Source of the DNA: Pseudomonadota bacterium
GTDB lineage: Bacteria > Pseudomonadota > Alphaproteobacteria > Sphingomonadales > Sphingomonadaceae
Reading direction: 5' to 3'
DNA: 64,000 nt
NCBI GenBank assembly: GCA_021849075.1
Contig: JAJZTH010000016.1
Span: 1,505-65,504, forward strand
Shown: in pieces, positions 17,253 to 63,950 of the stretch
How positions within the stretch are numbered: the first letter of the stretch is position 1
Layout: each line of letters begins with the position of its first letter
The notes under the pieces: model-generated
Databases searched by the model: none
Seen by the model: the letters and a program-made list of their open reading frames with translations, nothing else
Told to the model about the DNA's origin: nothing
Made by a program: the position numbers and the translations under genes

Positions 17253-17421
17253 GACTCGGGTCCTTCGGGTAAAATATCGCGGTCCCTCTACAGGTTGGGA
17301 CCGGTCTGTGAAACATATTATTCCTTTTATGGAGCCGTTGCGCCATTTTCTTGCGCCAGATGCAGACATCTTTGAGGCGCGCCGGGCGCCGTCGTACCGC
17401 GGATGATCCCATGATCATGCC

Positions 17422-17457
17422 CTTAACTTCGCATATTTCCCGCAAGTTTTGACATTT
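17422..17457 (-). repeat. Copy B of the 36-nt conserved intergenic element
   Basis: The reverse complement reads AAATGTC-aaaact-TGCGGGAAATATGCGAAGTTAAG. It lies about 170-205 nt upstream of the ilvD start and is oriented toward ilvD. Confidence 0.7.
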
Positions 17458-17645
17458 CATGTCAGGATCGTGAAATTATCTTATCTGACTGTTGCGCCAA
17501 TATAGGTAGTACGGGGCCTTGCAGGACAGGTGCAGGACGGGGCGTGGCCCCAACGGCATCTCGCCGTCGGCGGGGGCGATGTGATTGTCCCAGGGCGGGA
17601 CCGGCCGGGCAGGGCGCGCAAAGCGGACTGGCGCTGCGGAAAATC

Positions 17646-18338: not shown

Positions 18339-18465
18339 GGTGAAATTGCCTGCGACGCATCCGATCCGGATAGCATCACGAAGAAATATTCATTTCGGTT
18401 ACAGATCAAATTTACGATAAACTATGATTCGTCCAACATTGTGTTGCGCAGATCATAGGTGGATC

Positions 18466-19845
18466 ATGATCAAAGTAATTTTACGAACGCTTATGATGAC
18501 TTGCTGTCTTTCTGCCTGTGCAGAGACGACCAGCGTTTATCATAATCGCGCCATCGATACCGCAACGCCGCGCGCCATCACCATGGATGCCTATCAGCGG
18601 AGCGTGTTTTTCAACAAATTTGGTGAAAACGATCTGCGGATTTGCGCGGAGGCTGCGCCCGACGCTTTTTCCGCGCTCAGCGCCAGCCTGGCTGCCGAAG
18701 CGGATGTGGTCAAGAAAAGCGGCAGTCTGGCTGCCGCCCTGTCGCAATCGGGCGCGACGATCGAACGCACCCAGACCATCAACATGCTACGCGAATCCAT
18801 GTACCGGACGTGTGAACGCTATTTGTCCGGCGGTATCAGCCGTGAAACATTGATTGTCCAGGCGGCGCGCGATCAGCGCAACATGGTGGACATTCTGGCG
18901 ATCGAACAATTGACCCGCACCGCCCGGCTGCCATCGGTCATCATCGCCGGCGGTGCAACGTCCGCCAGCGTACCCAATCGCGCGCTGATCGATATGGTGA
19001 CGGGCTTCAAGACGGAGAGGGATACGGCGACCAAGGCACGGGATGCGGCCAAGGCGGCGTTCGATGCGGCTGATGGATCGGGCAAATGCAGCAGTGTCGC
19101 GACCCAGCCCGCCGATGATAGCGGGACGCCCACCAAGACGGCATGGGACGCCTGCAAGGCGCAGCAGTCGACTCTGGCGGAGCGAGAGGATGATCTGAAA
19201 ACGGCGCAGACCCGACTGGATCAGGCGCTGGCGCTTGGTGGGAATGCGGCCGGAGAGGGAGCGGTGTCCGCAGCGACGCAGGTGGGACAGCAGAGCAACG
19301 GTGCTGGCGGAACTGCGCTGAGCGATACGGCGATCAGCGCCATCGCCAGCGCAGTTCGCGACATTGCGAACAAGCCGGGTATCGACGAAGCCATGATGTT
19401 CTGCATCGCTTATGTCGGGACCAAGCCGGATAAGGTGCCGGCAGTTGTCGCCGCGACTCTTGATCCAGACATCAAGAAATTGTGCATCGATACGATCGCC
19501 AAGCGGGCGGCGCAGGATGAGCAAATCCGTGCAGAAGAATATCGATTGCAAAGCGGCGGCGCGGATATTTCGATCCGGGACTATCATAACGCTGATCAGG
19601 TCGCCGCGCAGAACAGAAGCATATTGCTGCGCTACCTCACCGCCGCAGATGCAAAGGAACGTCAGCGGCGGCTGGCGCTTGTTGGCCGGGAGGTCGTGGG
19701 TATGGGTTATTCCGCCGCACCGCAGGATATTTTCGATCTGGTTACGATGGGAAATGTCGCGCTGACGACTAACTTGTTGCGTGCCGTGCGGATCGCGGAA
19801 CAGAATCCAGCCGGACAGGCGGCGCTCGCAAATCCATCCAACTGA
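18466..19845 (+). CDS. Orphan lipoprotein, no recognisable domain
   Basis: AGGTGG SD, then MIKVILRTLMMTCCLSAC|AETT (lipobox LSAC, Ala at +2). The mature part has six Cys, a coiled-coil-like middle and an Ala/Gly-rich linker. GC is lower than in the flanks. Confidence 0.7.
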   Translation: MIKVILRTLMMTCCLSACAETTSVYHNRAIDTATPRAITMDAYQRSVFFNKFGENDLRICAEAAPDAFSALSASLAAEADVVKKSGSLAAALSQSGATIERTQTINMLRESMYRTCERYLSGGISRETLIVQAARDQRNMVDILAIEQLTRTARLPSVIIAGGATSASVPNRALIDMVTGFKTERDTATKARDAAKAAFDAADGSGKCSSVATQPADDSGTPTKTAWDACKAQQSTLAEREDDLKTAQTRLDQALALGGNAAGEGAVSAATQVGQQSNGAGGTALSDTAISAIASAVRDIANKPGIDEAMMFCIAYVGTKPDKVPAVVAATLDPDIKKLCIDTIAKRAAQDEQIRAEEYRLQSGGADISIRDYHNADQVAAQNRSILLRYLTAADAKERQRRLALVGREVVGMGYSAAPQDIFDLVTMGNVALTTNLLRAVRIAEQNPAGQAALANPSN

Positions 19846-49229: not shown

Positions 49230-49931
49230 TCAGCCCATCCCCTCGGTGTCCAGCGCATAGCCGGCTGACCGCACGGTGCGGATGATGTCCTGATACTGGC
49301 CATCGCCGTTGATCGCCTTGCGCAGGCGGCGGATATGGACGTCCACCGTGCGCAGTTCGATGTCGCTGTCCTGACCCCATACGCTGTCGAGCAGCCGCTC
49401 GCGCGAGAAGACCCAGCCTGGATGCTCCAGGAAATGCTTGAGCAGGCGGAACTCGGTCGGCCCAAGCGGGATCACCTGACCGCCGCGCCGCACCTTATGC
49501 CCCACCGTGTCCATCTCCACGTCGGAAAATGTCAGCGTTTCGCCGGCCAGCGCCGGGCGCACGCGGCGCAGCACCGCGCCCACCCGCGCCACCAGTTCGC
49601 GTGGGGAGAAGGGCTTGGTCACATAATCGTCCGCGCCCGTCTCCAGACCGCGCACCCGATCCTCTTCCTCGCCGCGCGCGGTCAGCATGATGATCGGGAT
49701 ATTGGCGGTGCCGTTCATGCGGCGCAGCCGGCGGCACACCTCGATCCCGGACAGGCTTTCGACCATCCAGTCGAGCAGCACGATGTCGGGCGTGTTTTCC
49801 TGCGCCATCAACAGCGCTTCTTCCCCATCGACCGTATGGGCGACGTCGAAATCCTCGCGCTTGAAATGCCAGATCAGCAGTTCGGCGAGCGCCGCGTCAT
49901 CCTCGACCAGCAGCATCTTGGCTCGGGCCAT
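49230..49931 (-). CDS. phoB: Phosphate regulon response regulator PhoB (OmpR family)
   Basis: Receiver domain (LLVEDD...DIVLLDWM...) plus a winged-helix domain (LRTVDVHIRRLRKAI). Confidence 0.93.
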   Translation of the reverse strand: MARAKMLLVEDDAALAELLIWHFKREDFDVAHTVDGEEALLMAQENTPDIVLLDWMVESLSGIEVCRRLRRMNGTANIPIIMLTARGEEEDRVRGLETGADDYVTKPFSPRELVARVGAVLRRVRPALAGETLTFSDVEMDTVGHKVRRGGQVIPLGPTEFRLLKHFLEHPGWVFSRERLLDSVWGQDSDIELRTVDVHIRRLRKAINGDGQYQDIIRTVRSAGYALDTEGMG

Positions 49932-49934
49932 GGA

Positions 49935-50630
49935 TCAGTCCTCCGCTTGCAGGTCGGCGCCGCGTTCGCGCTCGGGCAGGGTCTGGCCGGTGGCGGCATA
50001 ATAAACCATTTCCGCGACATTGGTCGCATGGTCGCCGATCCGCTCGATATTCTTGGCGATGAACAGCAGATGCGCGCATTCGCTGATCGTCTTGGGATTT
50101 TCGACCATGAAGGTGACGAGCGTACGGAACACGCTGTTGTAAAAATCATCGACCACCGTGTCGCGTTCGATGACCGCCAGCGCCAGATCGGCGTCGCGCG
50201 CGGCAAAGGCGTTCAGCGCATCATGCACCATTTCGCCCGCGACCTGCCCCATGGACGGCAGCAGGGAAATCGGTTCCAGCGTGCGGGTGTTGCTGGCCAC
50301 CAGCGGTACGCGCTTGGCGATATTCTTGGCATAGTCGCCGATGCGCTCCACGACGCTGACGATCTTCAGCGCGGCGATCACATCGCGCAGGTCGTTTGCC
50401 ATCGGCGCGCGGAGCGCAATCACCTGAATGACCAGCTTTTCGACTTCCGCCTCGATTGCGTCGATGCGCTTGTCGTCGGCCACGACCTGCGCGGCCAGCG
50501 CCTTGTCCTGCCGTTGCAGCGCCAGCATCGCATTTTCGATTGCCGCTTCGGCGCGCCCGCCCATTTCGGCGATCAGCCCGCGCAGCCGGTCGATTTCCTC
50601 GTCAAATGCCTTGATCGTATGTTCAGCCAT
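49935..50630 (-). CDS. phoU: Phosphate signalling complex protein PhoU
   Basis: 231 aa with a duplicated ERIGDxAxNIA motif. Confidence 0.93.
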   Translation of the reverse strand: MAEHTIKAFDEEIDRLRGLIAEMGGRAEAAIENAMLALQRQDKALAAQVVADDKRIDAIEAEVEKLVIQVIALRAPMANDLRDVIAALKIVSVVERIGDYAKNIAKRVPLVASNTRTLEPISLLPSMGQVAGEMVHDALNAFAARDADLALAVIERDTVVDDFYNSVFRTLVTFMVENPKTISECAHLLFIAKNIERIGDHATNVAEMVYYAATGQTLPERERGADLQAED

Positions 50631-50660
50631 GTTTCGTCTCTCCGGCGATCAGTGCCTAAA

Positions 50661-51464
50661 TCAGCCGTAACGGCCGGTGATATAATCCTTCGTCCGTTCC
50701 TGACGCGGATTGGTGAAGATGTCGCTCGTCACGCCATATTCGACCAGTTCGCCCAGGTGGAAGAAGGCGGTCCGCTGCGATACGCGGGCGGCCTGCTGCA
50801 TATTATGGGTCACGATGACGATGCCGTACCGGCCGCGCAGTTCGTGGATCAGTTCCTCGATCTTCGCCGTGGCGATCGGGTCCAGCGCCGAACAGGGTTC
50901 GTCCATCAGGATGACTTCGGGTTCGACCGCGATCGCGCGGCCGATGCACAGCCGCTGCTGCTGGCCGCCTGAAAGCGCGGTGCCGCTGTCATGCAGCCGG
51001 TCCTTCACCTCGTCCCACAGGCCGGCGCGGCGCAGCGACTTTTCGACGATCACGTCCATGTCCGCCTTGCCTGCGGCCAGACCGTGGATGCGCGGCCCAT
51101 AAGCGATATTTTCATAGATGGACTTGGGGAAGGGATTGGGCTTCTGGAACACCATGCCCACCCGTGCGCGCAGCTGCACCACGTCCATCGACGGGGCATA
51201 GATATCCTCGCCATCCAGCGTGATCGTGCCTTCTACCCGCGCCGAAGCCACGGTGTCGTTCATGCGGTTCAGCGTCCGCAGGAAGGTCGATTTGCCGCAG
51301 CCCGACGGGCCGATGAAGGCGGTGACATGGTCCATGTCGACATCGATCGACACGCCCTTGATCGCCTGTTTGGGGCCATAGAAAACCTTGACGTCACGGG
51401 CCGACATCTTGGGATTGGCGATGGTCAGGTCGGTTTGTTCTTGCATCATGGGGTCGATTACCAC
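50661..51464 (-). CDS. pstB: Phosphate ABC transporter ATP-binding protein
   Basis: GPSGCGKST Walker [15 protein letters not shown] signature, ILMDEP Walker B. Confidence 0.95.
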
Positions 51465-52705
51465 CGTGTTTCAAACTTGTTGCGCAGGTAGATGGCGAGG
51501 CCGTTCATCGCGAGCAGGAAGACCAGCAATACGATGATCGCGGCGGATGTCTTTTCGACAAAGCCCTTGGAGACTTCGTCCGACCAGAGGAAAATCTGCA
51601 CCGGCAGCACGGTCGCAGGATCGGTGATCCCACCCGGCGGCGTGGCGATGAAGGCGCGCATGCCGATCATCAGCAGCGGCGCCGTTTCGCCCAGCGCGCG
51701 GGCCATGCCGATGATGGTGCCGGTCAGGATGCCGGGCAGGGCCAGCGGCAGCACATGCTGGAACACCACCTGTACCGGCGAAGCGCCGATGCCCAGCGCT
51801 GCGTCGCGGATGCTGGGCGGCACCGCCTTGATGGCGTTGCGCCCGGCGATGACGATGACCGGCATCGTCATCAGCGCCAGCGTCATGCCGCCGATCAGCG
51901 CGGCCGACCGGGGCAGATGCAGGAAGTTGAGGAAGATTGACAGGCCCAGCAGACCAAAGATGATCGAGGGGACGGCGGCCAGATTGTTGATCGACACTTC
52001 GATAATGTCGGTCCACCACGCCTTGGGCGCATATTCCTCCAAATAGAGGGCCGTGGCCACGCCGACCGGGAAGCTGAGCAGCAGCGTCACCAGCATCGTC
52101 AGCAACGACCCCTTGAACGCGCCCCAGATGCCGACCTGCGTCGGATCGGTGCCGTCGCTGGCGATCAGGAAATTCCAGTTGATGCCAGTCGACAGTACGC
52201 CCTGTTGCTTCAGCCGCGCGACTTCCGCCTCGGCCTCCGGCGATCCCTTGCTCTTGGCGGCCAGGTCGATCGCGGTCGATGCGGGGACGCTGATCGTTTC
52301 GGTGCGGCCCAAAATCTTGGGATCGGCCTTGATCGCGTCGCGAATGCTGATCCAGGCGGTGGGCGACAGCAGCACATCGGCGTCGCCACCCAGCGCCTTC
52401 TTCGCCACTTCGCCCGTCACCATCGGCAGATTGGCGTTCGCCAGTGCCTCATCGGTGATCGCATTGGGATCGAGCAGCAGCGGAGAGGCCGGGAAGTCGA
52501 CCTGCAACGCAATCTCGGTCCGGGTAAAGCCGCGCAGGCCATTGCCCATCATGGTGAAGAGCAGGAAGGCGAGGAAGGCGGCGGACAAAGCGACGGCGGC
52601 CAGACCGGCCAGCTTGAAGCGGCGCTCGGCGGCATAGCGCCGGGCGATCCGCTTGCGCATCGCATCCGACTTCCAATCGGTGGGGAGACGTTGAGCGGTA
52701 CTCAT
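51458..52705 (-). CDS. pstA: Phosphate ABC transporter permease PstA
   Basis: Multi-TM protein with the permease motif ...[11 protein letters not shown]... Confidence 0.9.
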
Positions 52706-54096
52706 TCGTAAGCCTCGCGATATTTCTTCACGACCCGCAGGGCCACGATGTTGAGCAGCAGGGTGACGATGAACAGCACCAGCCCCAGCGCGAAGGCGGC
52801 CAGCGTCTTGGCGCTGTCAAATTCCTGATCGCCGGTCAGCAACTGGACGATCTGGGTCGTCACCGTGGTCACGCTGGCGAAGGGATTGGCAGTCATGTTG
52901 GCGGCCAGACCAGCCGCCATCACCACGATCATGGTTTCGCCGATCGCGCGGCTGACAGCCAGCAGCACGCCGCCGACAACGCCGGGCAGCGCGGCGGGAA
53001 TAAGGACGCGGGTGATCGTCTCGCTGGTCGTCGCGCCCATCGCCAGGCTGCCGTCGCGCATCGATTGCGGCACGGCGGCGATGCTGTCGTCGGCCATGGA
53101 GGACACGAACGGGATGATCATCACGCCCATCACCAGGCCGGCCGCCAGCGCGCTTTCCGAAGACGCGCCATGGATGCCGACCGACACGGCCAGATCGCGC
53201 AGCGCCGGGGCCACGGTCAGCGCGGCGAAATAACCGTAGACGACCGTGGGAACGCCCGCGAGGACTTCCAGGATCGGCTTCATCCATTTGCGCACGGTCG
53301 CACTGGCATATTGGGTCAGATAGACCGCGCTCATCAGGCCCAGCGGGATCGCCACGATCATGGCGATGATCGCGCCGATGAAGATGGTGCCCCAGAAGAG
53401 CGGCACCGCGCCGAACGCATCGTCATTGCCATATCCCATGGCGGCCGACTGCGGCGACCATTTCAGGCCGAACAGGAAGTCGACGGGGTTCACCATGGAG
53501 AAGAAGCGGAAGCTTTCCCACAGCAGCGACGCGACGATGCCCAGCGTGGTGACGATGGCCAGCAGCGATGCGACCAGCAGGGTCGCCATCACCAGCCGTT
53601 CGACCCGCGTGCGCGCCCGGAAATCGGGGCGGACGCGGGTGAAGGCGTAAGCGCCGCCGGCAAAGGCCAGGATCAGCGCCAGCGCCGCGCCGGCCACGCC
53701 ATAGCTGTTGAGCGCCGCGCGATAGGGTTCGACCAGCGCCTGAGAGGCCGGGTTGAAGGCCCCGGCCTGCAATCCCGTCGCGATCGCCCGCGCCTCGCCA
53801 AGGATGGCGGAGCGGGAGAAGGCGTCGGCGGGCAGGGCCTGCGCCGCCGGATCGGCGAGCACGGCCTGCGTCACCAGCCCGGGCGACACATTGGCCCACA
53901 CGGCCAGAAACAGGCCGGCGGGGATCAGCGTCCACAGCGCGACATACCAGCCATGATAGCCGGGCAGCGAGTGGACGGCGTCGCGACGCCCGGTTTCGCG
54001 CGCGGCGGTCTGTAACCGCAGCGCGCGGGCGCGAGCGCTGACCCAGGCGATGGCGCCCAGGCCCGCGAGCAGCAGGAAGATTGCAGGTCCGGTCAT
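52702..54096 (-). CDS. pstC: Phosphate ABC transporter permease PstC
   Basis: Multi-TM protein with the motif SRAIGETMIVVMAAG. 4-nt overlap with pstA. Confidence 0.9.
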   Translation of the reverse strand: MTGPAIFLLLAGLGAIAWVSARARALRLQTAARETGRRDAVHSLPGYHGWYVALWTLIPAGLFLAVWANVSPGLVTQAVLADPAAQALPADAFSRSAILGEARAIATGLQAGAFNPASQALVEPYRAALNSYGVAGAALALILAFAGGAYAFTRVRPDFRARTRVERLVMATLLVASLLAIVTTLGIVASLLWESFRFFSMVNPVDFLFGLKWSPQSAAMGYGNDDAFGAVPLFWGTIFIGAIIAMIVAIPLGLMSAVYLTQYASATVRKWMKPILEVLAGVPTVVYGYFAALTVAPALRDLAVSVGIHGASSESALAAGLVMGVMIIPFVSSMADDSIAAVPQSMRDGSLAMGATTSETITRVLIPAALPGVVGGVLLAVSRAIGETMIVVMAAGLAANMTANPFASVTTVTTQIVQLLTGDQEFDSAKTLAAFALGLVLFIVTLLLNIVALRVVKKYREAYE

Positions 54097-54107
54097 TACA
54101 CCTTCGC

Positions 54108-55172
54108 TTATTTGAGGTCGGAACCGTCGAGCACGGTCAGCGACTTGACCGTTTCGGCGCTTTTCTTGCGCACATCTTCCGGGGCCGCGACCATGCCGCG
54201 CTTGGTCAGCGCGCCGTCGGGACTCCAGTTGGCGGCGAAGCTGTTGAGGTACGCCTGAAGGCCCGGAATGGCCGTCATATGCGCCTTCTTCACATAGATG
54301 TAGAGCGGGCGCGCGCCGGGATATTGGCCCGTCGACACCGTTTCATAGGTCGCCTGAATGCCGTTGATCGGCACGTCGTTCAGCGTGTCCTTATTTTCCT
54401 CCAGGAAGCTGTAGCCGAACACGCCGACGGCGTTGGGATTGGCGTTCAGCTTCTGGACGATCAGATTGTCATTTTCGCCCGAATCCACATATTTGCCGTC
54501 TTCACGGATGCGGGTGCAGGTCGCCTTATATTCGTCTTCGCTCTTTTCCTTCAGCGCCTTCATCGCTTCGTCCGACTGGCATCCCTTTTCCAGGATCAGT
54601 TCGGCAAGCGAATCGCGCGTGCCGCTGGTCGATGGCGGGCCGAAGACGGAAATGGCGATCGCCGGCAGGCTGGGGTCCACATCCTTCCAGGTCTGGGCCT
54701 TGTTCGGACCCTTGCCATAGGGATTGGCGGCCAGCGCTTCATAAACGATCTTGGGGGTCAGCTTCAGGCCCGGACCCTTTTTCGATTCGGCAAAGGCCAG
54801 GCCGTCGACGCCGATCTGGATTTCGATGATGTCCTTGACGCCATTGGCCTGGCACTGTTCGAATTCCGACTTCTTGATGCGGCGCGATGCGTCTTCAATG
54901 TCGGGATGCTGGGCGCCCACGCCCGCGCAGAACAGCTTCATGCCGCCGCCGGTGCCGGTCGATTCGACGATCGGCGACTTCATGCCGGCATTGCCCTGCA
55001 CGAACAGTTCGGCGACCGCCGTGGCGAAGGGGTAGACGGTCGAGGAGCCGACCGCGCGGATCTGATCGCGGGTCGCGCCGGCGCCGCCGGTCTGGTCGCC
55101 GCATGCGGCAAGGCTGAAAACACTCGCGGTCGTGGCGGCGAGCAGGGCGAACTTCTTCACGGGAACCTCCAT
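54108..55172 (-). CDS. pstS: Phosphate ABC transporter substrate-binding lipoprotein (PstS family)
   Basis: Lipobox SLAAC, then AVGSSTVYPF. Positioned first in the pst operon. Confidence 0.88.
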   Translation of the reverse strand: MEVPVKKFALLAATTASVFSLAACGDQTGGAGATRDQIRAVGSSTVYPFATAVAELFVQGNAGMKSPIVESTGTGGGMKLFCAGVGAQHPDIEDASRRIKKSEFEQCQANGVKDIIEIQIGVDGLAFAESKKGPGLKLTPKIVYEALAANPYGKGPNKAQTWKDVDPSLPAIAISVFGPPSTSGTRDSLAELILEKGCQSDEAMKALKEKSEDEYKATCTRIREDGKYVDSGENDNLIVQKLNANPNAVGVFGYSFLEENKDTLNDVPINGIQATYETVSTGQYPGARPLYIYVKKAHMTAIPGLQAYLNSFAANWSPDGALTKRGMVAAPEDVRKKSAETVKSLTVLDGSDLK

Positions 55173-55243
55173 ACATCAAGGCCGCGATTCGCAAGTCGCC
55201 GCCCCCCTGTGGAAGCGCCCTAGTCGCGGACCATCGCGCCTTT

Positions 55244-55272
55244 GTGACAGTCAGGTTTCCTTTTTATGACAC
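55244..55272 (-). promoter_or_regulatory. Pho box upstream of pstS, overlapping the phoR stop codon
   Basis: The minus strand reads GTGTCAT-aaaa-AGGAAAC-ctga-CTGTCAC (three 7-mers in 11-bp phase; the outer two match the CTGTCAT core), 72-100 nt upstream of the pstS ATG. Confidence 0.65.
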
Positions 55273-56553
55273 TGTCCCGGAAAGCGCGGAAGGACGCTTT
55301 TTCTCGTCGATTTTTCCCTGCTGCTCTTCCACCGGGGGGGGCAGCAATACGGTGATGGTCGTGCCCTTGCCCAATGTGCTGGCGATGTCGAAACGGCCGC
55401 GATGCCGTTCCACAATATGTTTGACGATGGCCAGGCCCAGGCCGGTGCCGCCCATCGCACGGCTGCGGCCCGAATCGACGCGATAGAAACGCTCGGTCAG
55501 GCGGGGCAGATGATCGGGACCAATGCCTTCGCCTTCATCCGCCACGGTCAGCCGGGTCATGCCGCTCGGCCCCTCGTTCAGCGTCACGCGGATCGGCGTG
55601 CCGGGGCGGCCATATTTCACCGAATTGCCGATCAGATTGTGCAGCAGTTGCGACAATTGCGCGCGGTCGCCCTGTACGCCGGGCAGGCGCGGCGCGATGT
55701 CCATCTCCACCTCGCGGCCCCGGTCGCCATGGCTGGACCGGAACACGCCGACGACCTCGGCCGTCAGCTCGGACAGGTCGACCCGCGCGTCGGGCAGGCG
55801 ATATTTTTCCGATTCGATCCGGCTCAGCGAAATCAGATCGTCGATCAGGCGCTGCATCCGCCGCGCTTCCCGATCCATGATCGTCAGGAAGCGCTGGCGC
55901 GTTTCATCTTCCTTGCCCAATTCGGGGTCGGCCAGCGTTTCGATAAAGCCCAATATCCCGGCCAGCGGCGTGCGCAGTTCATGACTGGCGTTGGCGACGA
56001 AATCGACCCGCATCCGCTCGGCCGCATGGGTGCCGCTATGATCGACCAGATGGACCAGCCGGCGCATGTCATCGACCGCGCCGACCGGAGCGACGCGCAT
56101 CTGCCAGCGCTGGTCGCGCGCGCCCAGGCCCACCAGTTCGATCATGATCGGTTCGGCCAGCGGCGCCAGGCTGGCCAGCCGTTCGGCGGCGGCGGGGTGG
56201 CGGATCGCGATGCGCGCATCCTCGCCCTCTATATGTGCGCCGAGCAGGCGTTGCGCCGCCAGGTTCGCGCGCGCGATCCGGCCCTTTTCCACCAGCATCA
56301 GCGGATCGGAAATGCCCTCCAGCAGGCTGGCGAAATCGGGATGGGCGATCAGGTCGGGCTGATCTTGTATGACGGCGATTTCTTGCGCAGGGCGCAGGCC
56401 CGCGTCGCCTGATGTAATGATCAGCACCAGCACGCCCGCCAGCACCGGCAGGGCGATGCCGATCGGATTCGCGCCCAGCATCAGGGCGCCGCCGGTGCCC
56501 AGCATCAACATGGCGAGCGAGGCGGTAATCTGGGAAATACTAAGGCGATTCAT
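55264..56553 (-). CDS. phoR: Phosphate regulon sensor histidine kinase PhoR
   Basis: Two N-terminal TM segments, a PAS-like region, the H-box FVANASHELRTPL and N/G boxes (GTGLGLAIVKH). The start is 56553 or 56562. The ORF-track start at 56664 would overlap the divergent gene. Confidence 0.9.
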   Translation of the reverse strand: MNRLSISQITASLAMLMLGTGGALMLGANPIGIALPVLAGVLVLIITSGDAGLRPAQEIAVIQDQPDLIAHPDFASLLEGISDPLMLVEKGRIARANLAAQRLLGAHIEGEDARIAIRHPAAAERLASLAPLAEPIMIELVGLGARDQRWQMRVAPVGAVDDMRRLVHLVDHSGTHAAERMRVDFVANASHELRTPLAGILGFIETLADPELGKEDETRQRFLTIMDREARRMQRLIDDLISLSRIESEKYRLPDARVDLSELTAEVVGVFRSSHGDRGREVEMDIAPRLPGVQGDRAQLSQLLHNLIGNSVKYGRPGTPIRVTLNEGPSGMTRLTVADEGEGIGPDHLPRLTERFYRVDSGRSRAMGGTGLGLAIVKHIVERHRGRFDIASTLGKGTTITVLLPPPVEEQQGKIDEKKRPSALSGTVS

Positions 56554-56653
56554 AGTTACCATGCTGGATTTGTCGGCGATTAGCTGCGATATACGCCCCC
56601 AATAGCGTGCAATCTTTACGCTTTGGCAAGCGCAGGATGCGAAACGGGAAAAG

Positions 56654-57106
56654 ATGAGCGACACGACGCCCGAACAGGATGGTGCCGGCCCCCGCGATGA
56701 AGCGGGTCGCGCCGACGCGCCTTCGTTGACGCCGTCTTCGCTGACGCCATCGCGGCGTCAGTTGCTGATGGGCGGTGCGGTCGCGGCCTCGGCGATCGTG
56801 TCGATCCGTCCGGCGCTGGCCAATACGGCCGCTTCCGTGCTCAACTGCACCATTCCTGTGCCCGATCAGGGGCGTTCGGGTAATTATATCGCGCCCAACG
56901 GTCAACTAGTCCCCGCCGGTACGCCCGGCGCCTTCTCCGGCACCGGTCGCAGCTTCACTGGCGAACAGGTGAAGCAGGCGATTCGCGGTCGTCCGTTGCC
57001 CGGCACCAGCTACGACCAGAACCAAGCCTATTTGAACTATATCCGCCGGCTTCAGCGGGGGACGAGCGGCTTTACCTGCTACGCCTCGCTCCAGATGCCG
57101 CGCTAA
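56654..57106 (+). CDS. 150-aa Tat-signal secreted protein of unknown function
   Basis: PSRRQLLMGGAVAASAIVSIRPALA|NTAAS. The mature part is about 95 aa with two Cys (LNCTIP, FTCYAS). Divergent from phoR. GC3-rich frame. Confidence 0.6.
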   Translation: MSDTTPEQDGAGPRDEAGRADAPSLTPSSLTPSRRQLLMGGAVAASAIVSIRPALANTAASVLNCTIPVPDQGRSGNYIAPNGQLVPAGTPGAFSGTGRSFTGEQVKQAIRGRPLPGTSYDQNQAYLNYIRRLQRGTSGFTCYASLQMPR

Positions 57107-57120
57107 GAGTCCGTTTGGGA

Positions 57121-57137
57121 ATGCGCATCTGGCGCAT
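57121..57137. promoter_or_regulatory. Palindrome ATGCGC-N5-GCGCAT
   Basis: Read directly from the sequence, 15 nt after the stop at 57106. No U-tract. Confidence 0.4.
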
Positions 57138-57178
57138 CCGCACCGGCCCATTCAAACGAGGCACGTGACTCGCTTGAA

Positions 57179-57225
57179 CCCACCCGACCGCCCAGTGATG
57201 GTATCCTGATGGGTGGTCGGGTGGG
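57179..57225. other. Long hairpin (16-bp stem with one G-U, 15-nt loop)
   Basis: CCCACCCGACCGCCCA-gtgatggtatcctga-TGGGTGGTCGGGTGGG. Confidence 0.6.
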
Positions 57226-57246
57226 GGCGTGGGCCGGTGCCGCCAC

Positions 57247-57272
57247 GAAAATGCGCTCTGTCGCGCATTTTC
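57247..57272. promoter_or_regulatory. Perfect 10-bp palindrome GAAAATGCGC-N6-GCGCATTTTC
   Basis: Shares the ATGCGC/GCGCAT core with 57121-57137. It lies 113 nt upstream of the GT4 ATG. Confidence 0.45.
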
Positions 57273-57384
57273 CAAATACCGCGCTAAACCGTTCATCTGT
57301 CGCGTAACGAATTGAACGCATACGGAATGTCTGCGTTGACGTCGTCCAAGCTGCAACGATCGCAGGTTGAGACAAGGGTTACGC

Positions 57385-58533
57385 ATGGTCCAGTTCGGGC
57401 GCGCATTTTCGGTGGCGGTCTATCTCTATCGTCCGGGGGACGGGGGGCTTGATCGGGTTGCGATCCTGCTCGCCAATCATCTGTTGCGGCGCGGCGTGCC
57501 GGTCGAACTGTGGATGGCGCATCTCGATGGCCCGGCCGAGCATCTGATCGATCCCGCGCTGACGGTGCGCCGTGTGGCCTGTCCGGGTGGAGAGCGTCGC
57601 CTGTCGATGATCGGGCAGTTTCCCGCGCTGGCCGCCATGGTGCGGCGGCACCGGCCCGACATTCTCTATTCCGCCGGCAATCAGAGCAATATGCTGGTGG
57701 CGCTGGCCGCATTGGGCAGTGGCACCCGCGCGGTCGGCCGCATTTCCAACCCGATCGTGCGGCCCGGCCAGCAGGGCATGGGGGCTTGGGCGCGGCTCGC
57801 CAAATTCCGCACGATCGCGCGCCTGAGCGCTCTCACCATCGTCATGGGCGAGCATGATCGGGCGCTGCTGGCGGACAGTGGGAATGCGCGCCTGCTGCCG
57901 CGCCCGACCGTCACCGCTGCGATGGAGCAGGCGCAGGCCGCGCGGCCCGCCCGTACCGGCAACCGGCCGCATCATCTGCTGATGGTCGGGCGGCTGGCCG
58001 CGCAAAAGGATCAGGCGACGGCGCTGGCCGCGCTCGCGCGTCTGCCGCATCTCGACTGGCGGCTGACCATCGCCGGGCAGGGACCGTTGCTGGGCGCGCT
58101 GCGGGGCCGGTGCGACGCGCTGGGCATTGCCGACCGGGTCGATTTCGTCGGCTATGTCGGCTGCCCGGATGCGCTGGCGGGGCTGATGGGCGCGGCGGAC
58201 CTGCTGATCCAGCCGTCCCGCTGGGAGGGGTTGTGCGCCACATTGATCGAGGCGCTGGCCTGCGGCGCGCAGGTGGTGGCGACCGATTCAACCCCCAATA
58301 TCCGTTCGATCCTGTCCGACGCCGGCCAGCATCCGCCAGTGCCGGTGGGCGATGCGGCTGCACTCGCCCGCGCGATCGAGCGCAGCCTGGCCCAGCCAGT
58401 CCCCGCCGTCCGCCTGGTCGAAGCAGTGCGCGACCACGGCGTCGACCGCGCGCTCGACCGTTACCTGCGTGCATTCGAATCGCTGGCCGGCACGCCCGCC
58501 AAGCAGGGACGGCCATCGCCAGCCTTGTCCTGA
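57385..58533 (+). CDS. GT4-family (GT-B fold) glycosyltransferase
   Basis: GGLDRVAILLANHL N-domain and C-domain ...LLMVGRLAAQKD...VDFVGYV...ADLLIQPSRWEGLCATLIEALACGAQVVATD (EX7E-type motif). Confidence 0.8.
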   Translation: MVQFGRAFSVAVYLYRPGDGGLDRVAILLANHLLRRGVPVELWMAHLDGPAEHLIDPALTVRRVACPGGERRLSMIGQFPALAAMVRRHRPDILYSAGNQSNMLVALAALGSGTRAVGRISNPIVRPGQQGMGAWARLAKFRTIARLSALTIVMGEHDRALLADSGNARLLPRPTVTAAMEQAQAARPARTGNRPHHLLMVGRLAAQKDQATALAALARLPHLDWRLTIAGQGPLLGALRGRCDALGIADRVDFVGYVGCPDALAGLMGAADLLIQPSRWEGLCATLIEALACGAQVVATDSTPNIRSILSDAGQHPPVPVGDAAALARAIERSLAQPVPAVRLVEAVRDHGVDRALDRYLRAFESLAGTPAKQGRPSPALS

Positions 58534-58601
58534 TGCGTTAGGGACTTGGCTACGACTTTCCCCGATAGAGCGAAGGGAGCAGTCGAAGGAAGGCCCCGGA
58601 T

Positions 58602-58889
58602 TTGGACGCGACACCCCGTTATCGCCGGGACTCATCGGATGCAGTGGCGTCCTGCACGCTCGACGATCTCGTCCTTCTCTATCATCGCCGCTCGGGCCAG
58701 ACCCATATGGTGATCAGCCCGGTGCCGGAGATATTGGCGCAAATGGCCGATGGCGCGGCGCTCAGCGCGGGCGATGTGCATGACCGGCTGGCCCGCGATT
58801 TCGATCTCGGTCCGCAGGATGAAGCCATGGTGGAGATCGCCGCGCATCTCGATGCGCTGGTCGCGCTGGGGCTGGTGCGCCGGACATGA
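58602..58889 (+). CDS. PqqD-like small protein (HPr-rel-A-system type peptide chaperone/RRE)
   Basis: 95 aa from TTG (GGAAGG SD 8 nt upstream) with ...LDDLVLLYHRRSGQTHMVISPVPEIL...IAAHLDALVALGLV. An alternative GTG start is at 58644. ATGA overlap with the next gene. Confidence 0.65.
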   Translation: MDATPRYRRDSSDAVASCTLDDLVLLYHRRSGQTHMVISPVPEILAQMADGAALSAGDVHDRLARDFDLGPQDEAMVEIAAHLDALVALGLVRRT

Positions 58890-59749
58890 GGCACGCCATC
58901 ACCCTGCGCATCGGCCCTGCGACCTTCCGCATCGGGTCCGCCTGGTCCCAGCCGATCGCACAGCTGCGCCGGCTCTACGCCGCCTATCCCGATGTCGACG
59001 GCGCGATCGCCGATTTCACCGTTCGGCTTCAGCCGACCAGCCTGCTGCGCCGTTTCCTGCGCCCCTCCATCTTCATCACCGGCGATCATGGCCTGGCCGA
59101 CGCCGCGCCGATGAGCCTGGCCCATGGGCTGCTGGCGGCGGAAATGGGGATGAATCTGCAAATGGCGCTGGGCTGGCGTCGGCACCTGCTGCTCCATGCG
59201 TCGAGCGTGGAGAAGAACGGCCGCGTGCTGGTGATGACCGGCGAATCGGGATCGGGCAAATCCACGCTGGCGGCCTTGCTGGGGGAGCGGGGATGGCGCT
59301 TCATGGGCGATGAATTTGCCCTGCTCGATCTGCAAAGTGGCGCGATCCTGCCCTTTCCGCGCCTCGTCAGCCTCAAAAATCAGGCGATCGGCGTCGTCGC
59401 GGATGCCGTAGGGGATGCGCGGATGGGACCGCTGCTCGCCGCCACGGCGAAGGGCGACATTCGCCACATGATGCCGCGCGCGGACGCCGTCGCCCGCATG
59501 GATCAGGGCGGCATGCCCGCTTTGCTGCTCTTCCCCCGTTTCGGTCATGAGGCAGCGGTGCGCGAACTGGGGCAGGGCGAAATCTTCATGCGCCTGACGC
59601 AGGCGTCGACCAACTATGTCACGTTGGGCGAGCCGGCCTTTGCGGGCCTGACTCGTTTCGTCACCGCCGTTCCCGCCCGCGCCATCGACTTTCCCTCGGG
59701 CGAAGCAGCCTTCGCCATGGTCGATCGCCTGTGGGAGGAACTGGCATGA
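58886..59749 (+). CDS. HprK-related kinase (HPr kinase C-terminal-domain-like P-loop protein, 'kinase A' type)
   Basis: LLLHASSVEKNGRVLVMTGESGSGKSTLAALL...GDEFALLD. The P-loop placement resembles the HPr kinase/phosphorylase catalytic domain, but there is no N-terminal HprK domain. Confidence 0.7.
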   Translation: MRHAITLRIGPATFRIGSAWSQPIAQLRRLYAAYPDVDGAIADFTVRLQPTSLLRRFLRPSIFITGDHGLADAAPMSLAHGLLAAEMGMNLQMALGWRRHLLLHASSVEKNGRVLVMTGESGSGKSTLAALLGERGWRFMGDEFALLDLQSGAILPFPRLVSLKNQAIGVVADAVGDARMGPLLAATAKGDIRHMMPRADAVARMDQGGMPALLLFPRFGHEAAVRELGQGEIFMRLTQASTNYVTLGEPAFAGLTRFVTAVPARAIDFPSGEAAFAMVDRLWEELA

Positions 59750-60735
59750 GCGCCGCGTTGCTGGTCCGGGCGCTGCGCGATCCCGCCTGCGTCGCCGGGC
59801 TGGATGCGTCGGGGTGGAACGGCTTGATCGCGGCTGCGCGGGCCGAACGGCTGATCGCCACGCTTGCCCATCGGCTGGACTCGGCCCATATCCCGGCGTC
59901 GGTGCGCCCGATCCTGACCGATGCGAAGGCCGACGCCGCGCGCGAAGCGCAACAGGCCCTGTGGGAGGCGGATCGCGCCGCGCTGGCGTTGGACGGCCTT
60001 GATGTGCGCGTGGTGTTGCTCAAGGGCACGGCCTATGTCGCGGGCGCGCTGGCGGCGGGGCAGGGGCGCTTCATTGGCGATCTCGACATTCTGGTGCCGC
60101 GCGACGCGATGCCGGCGGTGGAAAAGGCGCTGATCGCGGCCGGCTGGGAATGGGTGAAGGAAGACGCCTATGACGACGCCTATTATCGCCAATGGATGCA
60201 TGAACTGCCGCCGATGATCCATGTCGATCGCGACCGGATGATCGATGTGCATCACACCGTCCTGCCGTTGACCGCACGCCAGACGCCGGACGCCGCCGCG
60301 ATGATCGCCGACGCCATTCCCATGGCCAATGGGTTATATATATTGTCGGCCGAAGACCGCATCGTCCATTCGGTCGCCCATATGCTGGCCGATGGCGACA
60401 TGCAGGGCGGCCTGCGCAATCTGTGGGACATATACTGCCTGCTGCCCGACGCCGATCCCGCCGCATTGGCGGCGCGCGCGCAGCGCCACGGTCTGGCGCA
60501 TCATGTCGCACAGGCGCGCCGGCTGGCTACCGCCCTCTATGGCGATGGCGCAGCGCTGACCCTGTGGGACCGGCTGGTGCGCATGCGGCTGCTGGCGCGT
60601 GACGGCTGGGGCCGGGAAACGCGCAAAGCGCTGGTCTTCGCTTTCTATGTCCGCTCCCACTGGCTGCGCATGCCGCCGCTGATGCTGGCCCGCCATCTGT
60701 GGACCAAATGGCGCAAGGGGCATCGCCCGCAGTGA
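59746..60735 (+). CDS. Uncharacterised nucleotidyltransferase-fold protein (PF14907-like)
   Basis: VVLLKGTAYV...RFIGDLDILVPRDAMPAVEKALIAAGW...IDVHHTVLP. ATGA overlap with the kinase gene. Confidence 0.65.
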   Translation: MSAALLVRALRDPACVAGLDASGWNGLIAAARAERLIATLAHRLDSAHIPASVRPILTDAKADAAREAQQALWEADRAALALDGLDVRVVLLKGTAYVAGALAAGQGRFIGDLDILVPRDAMPAVEKALIAAGWEWVKEDAYDDAYYRQWMHELPPMIHVDRDRMIDVHHTVLPLTARQTPDAAAMIADAIPMANGLYILSAEDRIVHSVAHMLADGDMQGGLRNLWDIYCLLPDADPAALAARAQRHGLAHHVAQARRLATALYGDGAALTLWDRLVRMRLLARDGWGRETRKALVFAFYVRSHWLRMPPLMLARHLWTKWRKGHRPQ

Positions 60736-60857: not shown

Positions 60858-61946
60858 ATGTCGAAATCCGTGCGCGCCTTGTTGTTTGCGAGCCTGACGG
60901 TCCTGCTGGCCGCCAGTTCTCCCAGCGCCAGCTCATCGCAGGATGGTTTTGCGCCAGCCATGGCCGCACTTGCCGATGATCTGCCGCTGTCGGTCATGAC
61001 CTATAATGTCATGGGCCTGCCCTGGCCGGTCGCCTTTGGCCGGGATGAAGCGCTGGCGCGCATCGCCGACCGGCTGGCCGGGCTGCGTGCGCAGGGGCGG
61101 CAGCCCCATATCCTGCTGTTGCAGGAAGCCTTCATTGTCGATCCGGCGGCCTTTGCGCGCCGCGCTGGCTACGCTTATGTCGCCGCCGGTCCGGGCGTGG
61201 AGGACCTGGGCGACGCTGCCCCCACGCCTGCCGATCGCGCCTATCTGCGCGCCGCCCGCTGGGATCGGGGGGAGGGGATGGGCAAGCAATTGGGCAGCGG
61301 CCTGCTGATCCTGTCCGACTGGCCGATCGCGGCGGTCGATCGCATGGCCTATCCGGCCTTCGCCTGCGCCGGGTTCGACTGTTTGGCGAACAAGGGCATT
61401 CTGATCGCCCATTTGCGCGTGCCGGGTATGGCGCGCCCGGTGGCGGTGGTGAACACGCACCTCAATGCGCGCAAGGCGGCAGGCGTGCCGATCGCGCGCT
61501 CACAGACGGCTTTTGGTCGGCAGGCGGGCCTGCTGGTCGATTTCGTCCGGGCACATGCGCCTGCGGATCGTGCCATCGTCATCGGCGGCGATTTCAACAT
61601 CGGGCGCGATCCCCGGCGGATCGACGCCTTTTTCGGGCGCTGGGCGCGCGTACGCATGGGCTTCGTCTCGGCGGCGATGGGCGGCGGCCCGCGCGCCTTG
61701 CAGGAAACGGCCCTTGCCGATCCGGCGCAGCGCCGCGATCTGGCCGAAGCGGTGGGGCGCGGCAAGGACTGGCTCTTCGCGCGCGGCGAAAGCGGCGCGC
61801 CCCTGCCGGTCGTCCAGGCCCGCACCCCCTTTGGCGGCGCGCCGGCTGATCGGCTGTCCGACCATGTCGGCTATGCGCTCAGCTACGGACCGCCATCCCG
61901 GCCGTTGCAACTGGCGCAGGCCGATATGCCTGCGGGCGGCCGCTGA
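60858..61946 (+). CDS. Secreted endonuclease/exonuclease/phosphatase (EEP) family protein (sphingomyelinase/phosphodiesterase-like)
   Basis: Signal peptide, then LSVMTYNVMGLPWP...ILLLQEAF...ANKGILIAHL...VNTHLNA...GGDFNI...LSDHVGY. Confidence 0.75.
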   Translation: MSKSVRALLFASLTVLLAASSPSASSSQDGFAPAMAALADDLPLSVMTYNVMGLPWPVAFGRDEALARIADRLAGLRAQGRQPHILLLQEAFIVDPAAFARRAGYAYVAAGPGVEDLGDAAPTPADRAYLRAARWDRGEGMGKQLGSGLLILSDWPIAAVDRMAYPAFACAGFDCLANKGILIAHLRVPGMARPVAVVNTHLNARKAAGVPIARSQTAFGRQAGLLVDFVRAHAPADRAIVIGGDFNIGRDPRRIDAFFGRWARVRMGFVSAAMGGGPRALQETALADPAQRRDLAEAVGRGKDWLFARGESGAPLPVVQARTPFGGAPADRLSDHVGYALSYGPPSRPLQLAQADMPAGGR

Positions 61947-63082
61947 TGCGCGCCGCTTCCCTGATCGCAGCCATGCTTGTCGCGACGCCCGCGCTGGCGC
62001 AGGCAGAGGATTTCCGCCCTGTCGCTGCCGATTTCGCCCTACGGCCCCGGATCGCCTTCGCCATCCGCCCCGCGCCCGCCGTCGCGTCGGCGCAGCGCCC
62101 GGCGCGCATCTACGCCATCGACCTTGCGCCGTCGCCCGCGCAGCCGGCCGACCTGCACCTCGCCATCCAGCGCCGCCGCCAGCGTTTCGCCCCGCCAGGC
62201 GCCGTCCGTACCGACACCCAGCCACGCAGCAGCTTGCGCATCGCCGCCATGCTCTTCGATCTGCCGCAGATGGACGATCGCCTGTCCGCGACGATCGGCT
62301 GGCAGGCGGTCAAGCTGTCGAACAAGGCGGTCAATGCGACATCGCCCTACAGCCGCGACGATCTGCGCGTGCGCGACGATTTCCTGCCATCGGCCGATAT
62401 GCGCTTTGCTGCGACCCCTCGGCTGATGCTCAGCGCCGATTATCGGGAAGGCATTCGCGCTTATGGCGACAGCGGCCGGATCGGCGCGCTGGGCCTCGAC
62501 CAGTCGGCCTTTCGCGCGCTGCGCCTTAGTCTGCGGCCCGAACGCAATAGCCGCGCCCGCATCGGCTTGCGCTGGATGGCGCGCGACGCGCTGCGGCTGG
62601 AGGCCGCCGCCTATGACGGCCATGTGCGCGATTCGCTGGCCTTTGCCGATGATGGCCTGTTGCCCCATAATCTGGGGTCCGCCCATGTGCGTGGGCTGAT
62701 GATGGCGGCGGCGCAGCGCCTGTCGCCGACGCTCGACCTGCGCCTGCGCTATGATCGGGCGCGCGCCGATCTGAACGATGGCGGCGCGCGCACCGAAACG
62801 CGGCTGGCGGCGCAGGGCGAATGGCGGCACGGTCCCTGGCGCGCCGGGCTGACTCTGGCTCGTTCCGGCGCGGATATGTGGCGGCAACAGGCGGCCGCGC
62901 TGCGTGTCGAATGCGGCGTCGACTATGCGCCTGCCGATGCGCACGCGCTGCGTATCGGCCTGCACCTGACCGATCCTGACCGGTTGACTGGCGATCGGCT
63001 GGCCGGGTCGCTGCCGTCCGGGCCGATGCGCGCCGTGGATCAGGCGCGCGCCCTGATGCTGAACGCCGCCCTGCGTTGGTAA
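61946..63082 (+). CDS. Predicted outer-membrane beta-barrel protein, unclassified
   Basis: Signal peptide MRAASLIAAMLVATPALA|QA, alternating amphipathic segments, and a C-terminal ...ALMLNAALRW (aromatic terminal residue). 1-nt TGATG overlap with the EEP gene. The frame has the strongest GC3 of the competing ORFs. Confidence 0.55.
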   Translation: MRAASLIAAMLVATPALAQAEDFRPVAADFALRPRIAFAIRPAPAVASAQRPARIYAIDLAPSPAQPADLHLAIQRRRQRFAPPGAVRTDTQPRSSLRIAAMLFDLPQMDDRLSATIGWQAVKLSNKAVNATSPYSRDDLRVRDDFLPSADMRFAATPRLMLSADYREGIRAYGDSGRIGALGLDQSAFRALRLSLRPERNSRARIGLRWMARDALRLEAAAYDGHVRDSLAFADDGLLPHNLGSAHVRGLMMAAAQRLSPTLDLRLRYDRARADLNDGGARTETRLAAQGEWRHGPWRAGLTLARSGADMWRQQAAALRVECGVDYAPADAHALRIGLHLTDPDRLTGDRLAGSLPSGPMRAVDQARALMLNAALRW

Positions 63083-63134
63083 TCGCCCTGTAGCATTGTC
63101 ATCCTATGCGCGCCGCTTCTGCAAAAGGGAGCGG

Positions 63135-63950
63135 ATGATGCGGCGTAAGATGGTGATGCTGGCGATGCTGGGCGCGGCGAGCGCCGCCATGGCGCAGGAG
63201 GCCGACGCGCCATCCCCGCCACCATCGCCCGTCACGCTGCGTCTACCCGCGCCCGAAGCGCGACAGGGCGTCGCGTCCGACGGCGTTCATGTCTATGCGA
63301 TCGACAATGACCGGATCGGCAAATATGTCATCGCCACCGGCCAGCGTATCGCCCAATGGCAGGGGGAGCGCCGCCTGTTCCCGCATATGAACAGTTGCAC
63401 CGTGGCGGGGCGCGAACTGGTCTGCGCCGCGTCCAACTATCCCGCCGTGCCCCAGACCAGCGCGATCGAGATTTTCGATACGAAGACGCTGCGCCACCTG
63501 CGCACCGTCAGCCTGGGTTTCGGCCCCGGATCGCTGACCGTGCTGGATCGCCATGCCGGCAAATGGTGGGCGGTCTACGCCAATTATGCCGGCAAGGGCG
63601 GGGAGCCGAACCGCGACTATCGCTACACTTTGCTGGTGCGCATGGACGACGCCTTCCGGCAGGAGGCCGCATGGACCTTCCCGCAACCGGTGCTGGCCCG
63701 CTTTGCCCCCTATAGCTGTTCGGGCGCCAGTTGGAGCGCGGATGGCCGCCTCTATGTTGCAGGCCATGATCGCCCGGAAATCTATGAACTGGCGCTGCCG
63801 CAGGCGGGATCGGCGCTGGAATGGAAACGCACCATCGGCATCGCGTCGCCCGGGCAGGCGATCGACTGGGACCCCAAGATCGCAAACCGCCTCTGGTCCG
63901 TCGACCGCAAGGCAACGGCATTGGTCGCCAGCCAGATTCCCCTGCCATAA
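63135..63950 (+). CDS. Secreted hypothetical protein (beta-propeller-like repeats?)
   Basis: AAAAGGGAG SD, then MMRRKMVMLAMLGAASAAMA|QEA. No catalytic motif recognised. Confidence 0.55.
   Translation: MMRRKMVMLAMLGAASAAMAQEADAPSPPPSPVTLRLPAPEARQGVASDGVHVYAIDNDRIGKYVIATGQRIAQWQGERRLFPHMNSCTVAGRELVCAASNYPAVPQTSAIEIFDTKTLRHLRTVSLGFGPGSLTVLDRHAGKWWAVYANYAGKGGEPNRDYRYTLLVRMDDAFRQEAAWTFPQPVLARFAPYSCSGASWSADGRLYVAGHDRPEIYELALPQAGSALEWKRTIGIASPGQAIDWDPKIANRLWSVDRKATALVASQIPLP

Follow-up and report, generated by a model that had tools for sequence, protein, structure and literature searches.

A linear polyphosphorylated peptide (LPP) pathway described from Bacillota in 2026 comprises LppA, LppB (a recognition element, RRE, of peptides that are synthesized ribosomally and modified post-translationally, RiPPs), LppK (an HprK-like kinase), LppN (a nucleoside triphosphate (NTP)-transferase), LppS (a SipW-like peptidase) and LppD (an exporter) (PMC13381572). 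LPP precursors of 35–200 amino acids (aa) have a conserved N-terminus and a variable C-terminus, Ser3 of the core is polyphosphorylated by LppK, the leader is removed by a signal-peptidase-like enzyme with assistance from the RRE, and the clusters frequently lie within loci for polysaccharides or glycosyltransferases; the paper mentions neither Proteobacteria nor signal peptides (PMC13381572). Related chemistry is known from lasso peptides, where HprK-like kinases phosphorylate a Ser of the precursor and, in pseudomycoidin, a PF14907-type enzyme adds a hexose to the phosphate (reviewed in PMC8498205). Bufferins, which are MNIO-modified RiPPs, use a Sec signal peptide instead of a dedicated protease and pump, and the authors of that work considered bulky modifications poorly suited to Sec (PMC11626156). 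Here we describe a cassette in a 64,000-nucleotide (nt) stretch of a Sphingomonadaceae genome (contig JAJZTH010000016.1; the whole stretch is referred to as the window) in which genes for a PqqD-like protein, an HprK-related kinase A and a PF14907 nucleotidyltransferase (NTase) follow one another. Catalogues have for years listed HprK-related kinase A together with its PqqD partner by co-occurrence only, as the HPr-rel-A system, and the cassette belongs to this catalogued, uncharacterised family; its presence is not new. The conserved unit, however, is one of four genes, the fourth lying upstream and encoding a 150-aa protein with a predicted twin-arginine (RR) signal peptide (Table 1), and from sequence comparison this exported protein is most likely what the trio modifies before export.

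Table 1. Features of the four-gene unit and of the sequence interposed in it, in coordinates of the window
Feature	Position	Strand	Basis
Candidate substrate/precursor, 150 aa, with predicted twin-arginine signal	56654..57106	+	Upstream homologue in 44/48 other Sphingomonadales loci
Predicted signal/leader, residues 1-56, predicted cleavage after A-L-A56; proposed binding site of the PqqD-like protein	56654..56821	+	Conservation and motif
Codon of Ser61, predicted (poly)phosphorylation site, fifth residue past the predicted cleavage	56834..56836	+	Invariance and LPP analogy
Structured intergenic spacer: palindrome (16-bp stem, about 57177-57226) and second hairpin	57107..57384	+	RNA fold z-score -5.27
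GT4 glycosyltransferase, 382 aa counted from ATG	57385-58533	+	Pfam Glycos_transf_1 and Glyco_transf_4 matches
PqqD-like RiPP recognition element, stand-alone predicted peptide-binding protein, 95 aa	58602-58889	+	TIGR04353
HprK-related kinase A, 287 aa	58886-59749	+	TIGR04352
PF14907 nucleotidyltransferase-fold enzyme, 329 aa, motif GDLDILV	59746-60735	+	PF14907, E 5e-48

Related loci were gathered via the kinase and comprised 80 genome loci and 80 metagenome loci. The NTase gene adjoined the kinase gene in 108 of 115 loci and a PqqD gene was detected by tblastn in 117 of 132; the trio is syntenic in relatives, in line with its treatment as a cassette in an earlier, sequence-only reading of the window. 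The same reading had described the cassette as having no visible substrate gene and had listed a Tat-secreted protein (Tat, twin-arginine translocation) as a mere neighbour, while proposing that comparison of gene neighbourhoods might reveal a co-conserved small open reading frame (ORF). The comparison did so, and the ORF is that of the supposed neighbour, the only gene to be conserved along with the trio. In 44 of the 48 other Sphingomonadales loci the PqqD gene is immediately preceded, on the same strand, by a homologue of it, which is kept in two of these loci (L010 and L012) though phoR and pstS are absent from them. In beta- and gammaproteobacteria the slot upstream of the PqqD gene is taken, in 49 of 52 loci, by a protein that is unrelated but has a signal of this same type. 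Thus the gene before PqqD in Janthinobacterium, where the cassette lies inside a PEP-CTERM/exosortase locus, and in Sulfurirhabdus, where it lies beside hemA-prfA-prmC, encodes a protein of 191–231 aa whose mature part is unrelated to that of the alpha-type and whose N-terminus is a near-consensus twin-arginine signal, SRR(R/H)FTK..h-region..S(R/K)PVLG (beta-type). For counting, a hidden Markov model (HMM) was built for each of the two families, without cross-matches between them, and the denominator was set as the 103 HprK_rel_A loci whose upstream sequence exceeds 1300 nt. By these models an RR-signal gene was found directly upstream on the same strand in 92 of the 103 loci (43 alpha-type, 49 beta-type), and in three further loci only a GT4 gene separates an alpha-type RR gene from the PqqD gene, giving a total of about 95. 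One locus (L054) has a third type of RR-signal protein, encoded by a short upstream ORF of 104 aa, and in another (L003) the sequence is too short to reach the upstream position. The linkage persists across changed flanks (pho/pst, PEP-CTERM, hemA-prfA), and no other co-conserved small ORF was seen at the related loci. Because the RR-signal gene is co-conserved in Sphingomonadales and, as an unrelated protein, in beta- and gammaproteobacteria, the conserved unit consists of the genes for the RR-signal protein, the PqqD-like protein, the kinase and the PF14907 enzyme. A crude regular expression, RR plus an uncharged stretch, had flagged 94 of 108 loci but also 17% of unrelated putative genes; since unrelated genes in GC-rich loci also matched, it was dropped as evidence and the HMM family counts were used instead.

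In the window protein the signal consists of a variable n-region followed by S33-R34-R35-Q-L-L, an h-region and I-R-P-A-L-A56, and the mature domain has 94 aa. An alignment of 38 alpha-type sequences gave majority fractions of 0.21 for the n-region preceding RR, 0.78 from RR to AxA and 0.72 for the mature domain, with an entropy of 0.84 from RR to AxA versus 1.18 for the mature domain. A signal region more conserved than its mature domain is unusual for signal peptides, and this suggests a second constraint on the stretch from RR to AxA. The c-region (S/T)-Φ-(R/K)-P-x-(L/M)-(A/G) is common to the alpha- and beta-type families. The signals are predicted to be of Tat type by motif inspection (alpha-type, SRRQLLMGGAVAASAIVSIRPALA; beta-type near consensus, SRRRFTKAGLG..SRPVLG) together with one weak match to TIGR02811 (E 0.034). 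Residues S61, C65, P68, G83, Y129, L133, G136, G139, F140, T141, C142 and S145 are invariant in the mature alpha-type domain, and the Ser of C-x-S-P-S-G, a few residues past the cleavage site, is at least 95% conserved in the beta-type, such that each family has a near-invariant Ser approximately 5–12 residues past the predicted cleavage. By analogy with LPP, Ser61 is the predicted phosphorylation site of the window protein. Neither the alpha- nor the beta-type upstream proteins matched a Pfam or NCBIfam family, and each of the approximately 3108 alpha-type clusters in the database bears the name 'hypothetical protein'. An AlphaFold2 (AF2) model of the 150-aa protein, made from close homologues only, reached a predicted local distance difference test (pLDDT) score of 58 and had no fold match in the PDB (best E 0.45). 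A distant alpha-type homologue (L052:9139-9684) carries long poly-Gly insertions (GGGGGGGG) just after the signal and within the mature domain, whilst retaining the C..IP and SGFTC motifs.

The layout given by the sequence-only reading was present in the sequence throughout: four co-directional ORFs at 57385-60735 on the forward strand, ATGA overlaps at 58886-58889 (PqqD/kinase) and 59746-59749 (kinase/NTase), 68 nt between the GT4 stop and the TTG start of the PqqD gene, and the motifs VLVMTGESGSGKST (P-loop of the 287-aa protein) and GDLDILVPRD (329-aa protein) in the translations. The TTG start of the 95-aa ORF is preceded by a Shine-Dalgarno sequence, GAAGGAAGG; one gene caller favoured an 81-aa version of this ORF. 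In profile searches with curated cut-offs the family assignments proposed earlier were upheld for all three core proteins, the PqqD-like protein scoring 67.6 bits against TIGR04353 (HPr-rel-A PqqD; cut-off 35), the kinase 221.4 bits against TIGR04352 (HprK-related kinase A; cut-off 200) and the NTase 164.3 bits against PF14907 (NTP_transf_5; cut-off 31.2), with 99.9 bits for Glycos_transf_1 on the GT4 protein (cut-off 26.4). Two of the Pfam models that had been suggested did not reach threshold: the Pfam PqqD profile was not reached by the window protein on its own, and the kinase scored 17.8 bits against PF07475 (Hpr_kinase_C; cut-off 33.3), with 18.1 bits against TIGR00679 (cut-off 240). As it falls below the Hpr_kinase_C cut-off, the kinase is related to HprK/P without being HprK/P proper. 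The window thus has the features that define HPr-rel-A, namely a TIGR04352 kinase with a TIGR04353 PqqD gene directly upstream and a PF14907 gene directly downstream in conserved order, and since the family matches lie above threshold and the gene order is conserved, membership and order of the trio are real and not due to chance. The nearest homologues were Sphingobium proteins throughout, and the organism belongs to Sphingobium.

The profile of the PqqD-like family had as its best natural PDB match the fusilassin leader-binding protein TfuB1 (6jx3_B, E 2.9e-4, near full length) and also matched TbiB1 and the CteB RRE; by sequence, the solved structures nearest to this family are leader-binding RREs of lasso systems. 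In the kinase the P-loop corresponds to G119-T127, and H104, the P-loop, D142, E143, K164 and further residues are invariant in the family. Its sequence aligned with HprK/P structures across LHx..V..G.GVLI.G.SG.GKS, and the fold of its AF2 model (pLDDT 91.7) matched PEP-carboxykinases and HprK/P, in agreement with the known PEP-carboxykinase-like fold of HprK. The NTase retains the GDxD carboxylates; a sequence search found no relative of it among solved structures. Natural fusions of PqqD with kinase and of kinase with NTase occur (the latter in P0174 and P0240). PADLOC assigned no membership of a defence system, its sole match being confined to the P-loop (E 7e-4).

The sequence-only reading had noted the absence of lasso and radical-SAM machinery, and this was confirmed. 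The 10 kb upstream contain phoR, pstSCAB, phoU and phoB, and the 10 kb downstream contain an EEP enzyme, a barrel, a 271-aa protein, TetR, SDR, pyrC and pyrB. Within 10 kb on either side there is no Asn-synthase-like cyclase, no transglutaminase-like B2 leader peptidase and no MsbA-like ABC exporter, the nearby ABC genes being only pstSCAB on the opposite strand, and no peptidase family, SipW-like signal peptidase I included, was found among the genes called there. Across the 64-kb window no ORF of 150 aa or more contains SGGxDS (PP-loop) or CxxxCxxC. One of the related loci (Novosphingobium subterraneum, L073:7646-13653) holds a canonical lasso cluster, unusual in its tailoring, that comprises an ATP-grasp protein fused to a transglutaminase-like B2 protease, an HprK-like kinase, a sulfotransferase and an Asn-synthase-type cyclase.

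Compared with LPP, the cassette has the same combination of RRE, HprK-like kinase and NTP-transferase and has a Ser near the start of the core, phosphorylated in LPP and predicted to be so here; the cassette enzymes are likened to LppK, LppB and LppN by their description. LPP clusters differ in their dedicated peptidase and ABC exporter, for which the cassette has no equivalent, and in their leader, YxxPxVLxHQxIxFETxxS as opposed to a twin-arginine signal of the form RR-x-L-L-...-S-I-R-P-A-L-A. The cassette is proteobacterial with a kinase of its own equivalog, TIGR04352, whereas LPP is found in Bacillota. The tailoring enzymes of paeninodin and pseudomycoidin (PadeK and ThcoK kinases, PsmN transferase) likewise have counterparts in the cassette in an HprK-like kinase, a PF14907-type enzyme and an RRE, but the cassette lacks a cyclase, a B2 protease and a short lasso precursor, and the target Ser, the C-terminal residue in those peptides, would probably be N-terminal in the core. 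Bufferins resemble the cassette in having a small folded precursor, an N-terminal general-secretion signal and an RRE-like partner protein, and differ in using a Sec rather than a Tat-type signal and in their Cys-to-thiooxazole chemistry. In TorD/DmsD and NapD, as is proposed for the cassette, a small cytoplasmic protein sits on a twin-arginine signal until maturation, but their folds and families are unrelated and they supervise cofactor insertion rather than covalent phosphorylation. HprK/P itself shares with the cassette kinase a PEP-carboxykinase-like P-loop fold and the LH(A/G), GxSGxGKS and D(D/E) motifs, and is set apart by a different N-terminal domain; there is no HPr in the operon and the proposed substrate is different. 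Of the general features of RRE-dependent RiPP loci, the cassette shows both an RRE/PqqD-fold protein and an adjacent, co-directional, co-conserved candidate precursor gene.

We therefore put forward, as a proposal about evenly balanced between likely and unlikely, that the four-gene unit corresponds in Proteobacteria to the LPP pathway of Bacillota and that a Tat-type signal peptide takes the part of the leader. From the gene families, co-conservation and sequence features described above we infer the binding, all of the chemistry, the site of modification and the route of export as follows. The 150-aa protein would be made in the cytoplasm, where the PqqD-like protein would bind its N-terminal leader (the conserved Tat-type h- and c-region, ..S-I-R-P-A-L-A) and present the kinase with the beginning of the mature domain. 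A nearby Ser, predicted to be Ser61, would then be phosphorylated once or several times, the phosphate would be elaborated by the PF14907 enzyme with a nucleotide-derived or sugar moiety, and in this Sphingobium subclade the decoration might be extended by the inserted GT4. The folded, modified protein would finally be exported via Tat and the leader cut by the housekeeping signal peptidase. On this proposal a cassette without a protease or exporter of its own is explained, since Tat and the housekeeping signal peptidase would serve, and the interchangeable cargo domains are also accounted for. Cytoplasmic GT4 enzymes such as GtfA are known to glycosylate Ser-rich adhesins before export. The notion of the sequence-only reading that the trio forms a stand-alone module for phosphorylation of a peptide or protein and NTP transfer has found experimental support in the analogous Bacillota system (PMC13381572). 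The further-reaching idea, that the Tat-type signal doubles as an RRE-bound leader and that thousands of Alpha-, Beta- and Gammaproteobacteria phosphorylate and decorate small folded proteins and export them by Tat, is offered more tentatively and is perhaps rather less likely to be true than false.

Several points weigh against the LPP-like proposal. The leader has only 'PxL' in common with Y/WxxPxL, the motif found in the leaders of lasso and LPP precursors, and Tat-signal profiles from Pfam (PF10518) and NCBIfam gave no significant match beyond the weak TIGR02811 hit. The activity of LppN was not demonstrated, and its product was not identified, in the LPP study (PMC13381572). The bufferin signal peptide is dispensable for modification (PMC11626156), so a signal need not be the recognition element. 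Much of the adjacency in Sphingomonadales could be inherited synteny with phoR. The biochemistry of every cassette member, modification of the RR-signal protein included, is moreover inferred by analogy, and at some loci the trio and the RR gene part company: four Sphingopyxis-type loci, flanked by MarR on the upstream side and by glmU/glmS on the downstream side, hold the PqqD, kinase and NTase genes with no RR gene within 10 kb, and two others (L088 and L091) have neither PqqD nor RR gene. The Sphingopyxis-type arrangement would suit a trio that modifies a peptide or protein encoded elsewhere, with the upstream RR protein as a co-regulated bystander or as a periplasmic partner of the product. 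We consider this unlikely, because two to three unrelated families of RR-signal protein fill the same-strand slot upstream of PqqD at about 95 of 103 loci in two proteobacterial classes with differing flanks, and because no competing co-conserved small ORF was seen.

A non-protein envelope substrate, such as an exopolysaccharide, a lipid or a glycan precursor, appears less probable still. The PqqD-like protein would then be a scaffold only and the RR protein a secreted factor of the same pathway, as could be supposed from the GT4 inside the operon here, from the Janthinobacterium locus within its PEP-CTERM/exosortase exopolysaccharide region, from the Wza-like export gene upstream in several metagenome loci and from the occurrence of PF14907 beside phosphonate genes. 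Yet 45 of 48 relatives are without a GT4, the exopolysaccharide context is not conserved (hemA-prfA in Sulfurirhabdus, pho/pst in sphingomonads), RRE domains bind peptides, as do the leader-binding proteins that are the nearest solved relatives of the PqqD-like family, and peptides are the substrates of those HprK-like and PF14907 homologues that have been characterised. Retention of all HprK catalytic residues in the kinase and of the carboxylates in the NTase, the covalent chemistry of homologous pairs, and the lack of any TorD/DmsD or NapD family match in profile searches speak against a Tat-substrate proofreading or holding chaperone, like TorD or NapD, in which the ATPase and NTase would be regulatory and no covalent decoration would take place. 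This is an improbable reading, though a signal peptide conserved beyond the needs of export and a small, stand-alone PqqD-like protein would both accord with it. Least credible, to the point of being very improbable, is a tailoring set that acts in trans on a lasso cluster elsewhere in the genome. Sphingomonads do have lasso clusters with HprK-like kinases, as in the Novosphingobium cluster above, and PMC8498205 refers to a predicted cluster from Sphingobium yanoikuyae; but the kinase of the Novosphingobium cluster is only distantly paralogous to that of the cassette (33% identity over approximately 120 residues, and not TIGR04352), the trio carries its own RRE and keeps a fixed chromosomal site throughout Sphingomonadales, and no lasso genes lie within 10 kb. 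Modification of the RR-signal protein before its export is thus the reading that we prefer.

The sequence-only reading had counted the GT4 gene as a member of the cassette and had taken the EEP enzyme and outer-membrane barrel as hints to function; neither was sustained by comparison with relatives. A GT4 gene between the RR and PqqD genes occurs only in this organism and in three other Sphingobium loci (L005–L007), that is, in 3 of the 48 other Sphingomonadales loci, and is a lineage-specific insertion and a possible accessory tailoring enzyme. Between the candidate substrate gene and the GT4 gene, a strong-folding element spans 57150-57290. Related palindromes sit at different positions in relatives (L005:9535-9647 and L011:12648-12725), for which reason the spacer palindrome is probably a REP-like (repetitive extragenic palindromic) mobile element; it could attenuate read-through. 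At several other loci unrelated GC-rich hairpins lie between the RR and PqqD genes. No Rfam match was found in the spacer or the region, and no sigma-70 promoter or intrinsic terminator above shuffle expectation.

Upstream, a phoB-phoU-pstBACS-phoR block (49230-56562, reverse strand) is divergent from the RR gene across an intergenic region at 56563-56653, and most Sphingomonadales loci retain the adjacency of phoR and the RR gene. A search upstream of the RR gene with the E. coli-type consensus, the only one tried, gave no consistent Pho box; Pho regulation of the RR gene is not supported, and a regulatory link to phosphate is conjectural. Downstream, 60858-63950 encodes a sphingomyelinase-like EEP enzyme that has a signal peptide, a 378-aa TonB-receptor-type barrel, for which the Pfam match covers the barrel part only and no Plug, and a 284-aa secreted protein without a family; the EEP stop and barrel start overlap at base 61946. 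This block is common to one relative only, Sphingobium sp. YR768 (L005), and the downstream flank is otherwise not conserved.

Further variants were observed among the related cassettes. At one related locus (L164:2824-3504) the NTase gene is followed downstream by another beta-type RR-signal gene, a second one besides the upstream copy, suggesting that some cassettes serve more than one precursor. In a Sphingopyxis-type cassette without an adjacent RR gene, an ORF of approximately 393 aa (L039:10876-12057, reverse strand) splits the kinase and NTase genes; judged by eye, it resembles an IS110-type transposase. Beta-type cassettes are often found in exopolysaccharide or PEP-CTERM/exosortase surroundings (L084, Janthinobacterium, 5702-19010; L120, L161 and L162, upstream), which include PEP-CTERM proteins, a PrsK/PrsR-like sensor-regulator pair, Bac_transf, a Wza-like exporter and an SLT transglycosylase. 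This setting echoes the embedding of Bacillota LPP clusters in capsular loci.

In the literature searched, neither HprK-related kinase A nor HPr-rel-A is mentioned by name and no connection of PqqD with twin-arginine signals is drawn, and a search for HPr kinase with exosortase gave nothing relevant. What is new here is the assignment of a specific substrate, the link to the LPP pathway and, as a possibility, the twist that a Tat signal acts as leader. The kinase and its PqqD partner are abundant, with more than 7000 clusters at 90% identity, and a co-conserved candidate substrate turns 'function unknown' into an experimentally addressable question and connects the system to LPP. Should the signal prove to be the recognition element, it would be the first Tat signal serving as a RiPP-type leader and would explain how bulky cytoplasmic modifications are exported. 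The family would then stand for an undescribed and widespread class of phospho- or phosphoglyco-proteins exported by Tat, in which cargo domains are interchangeable behind a single conserved leader.

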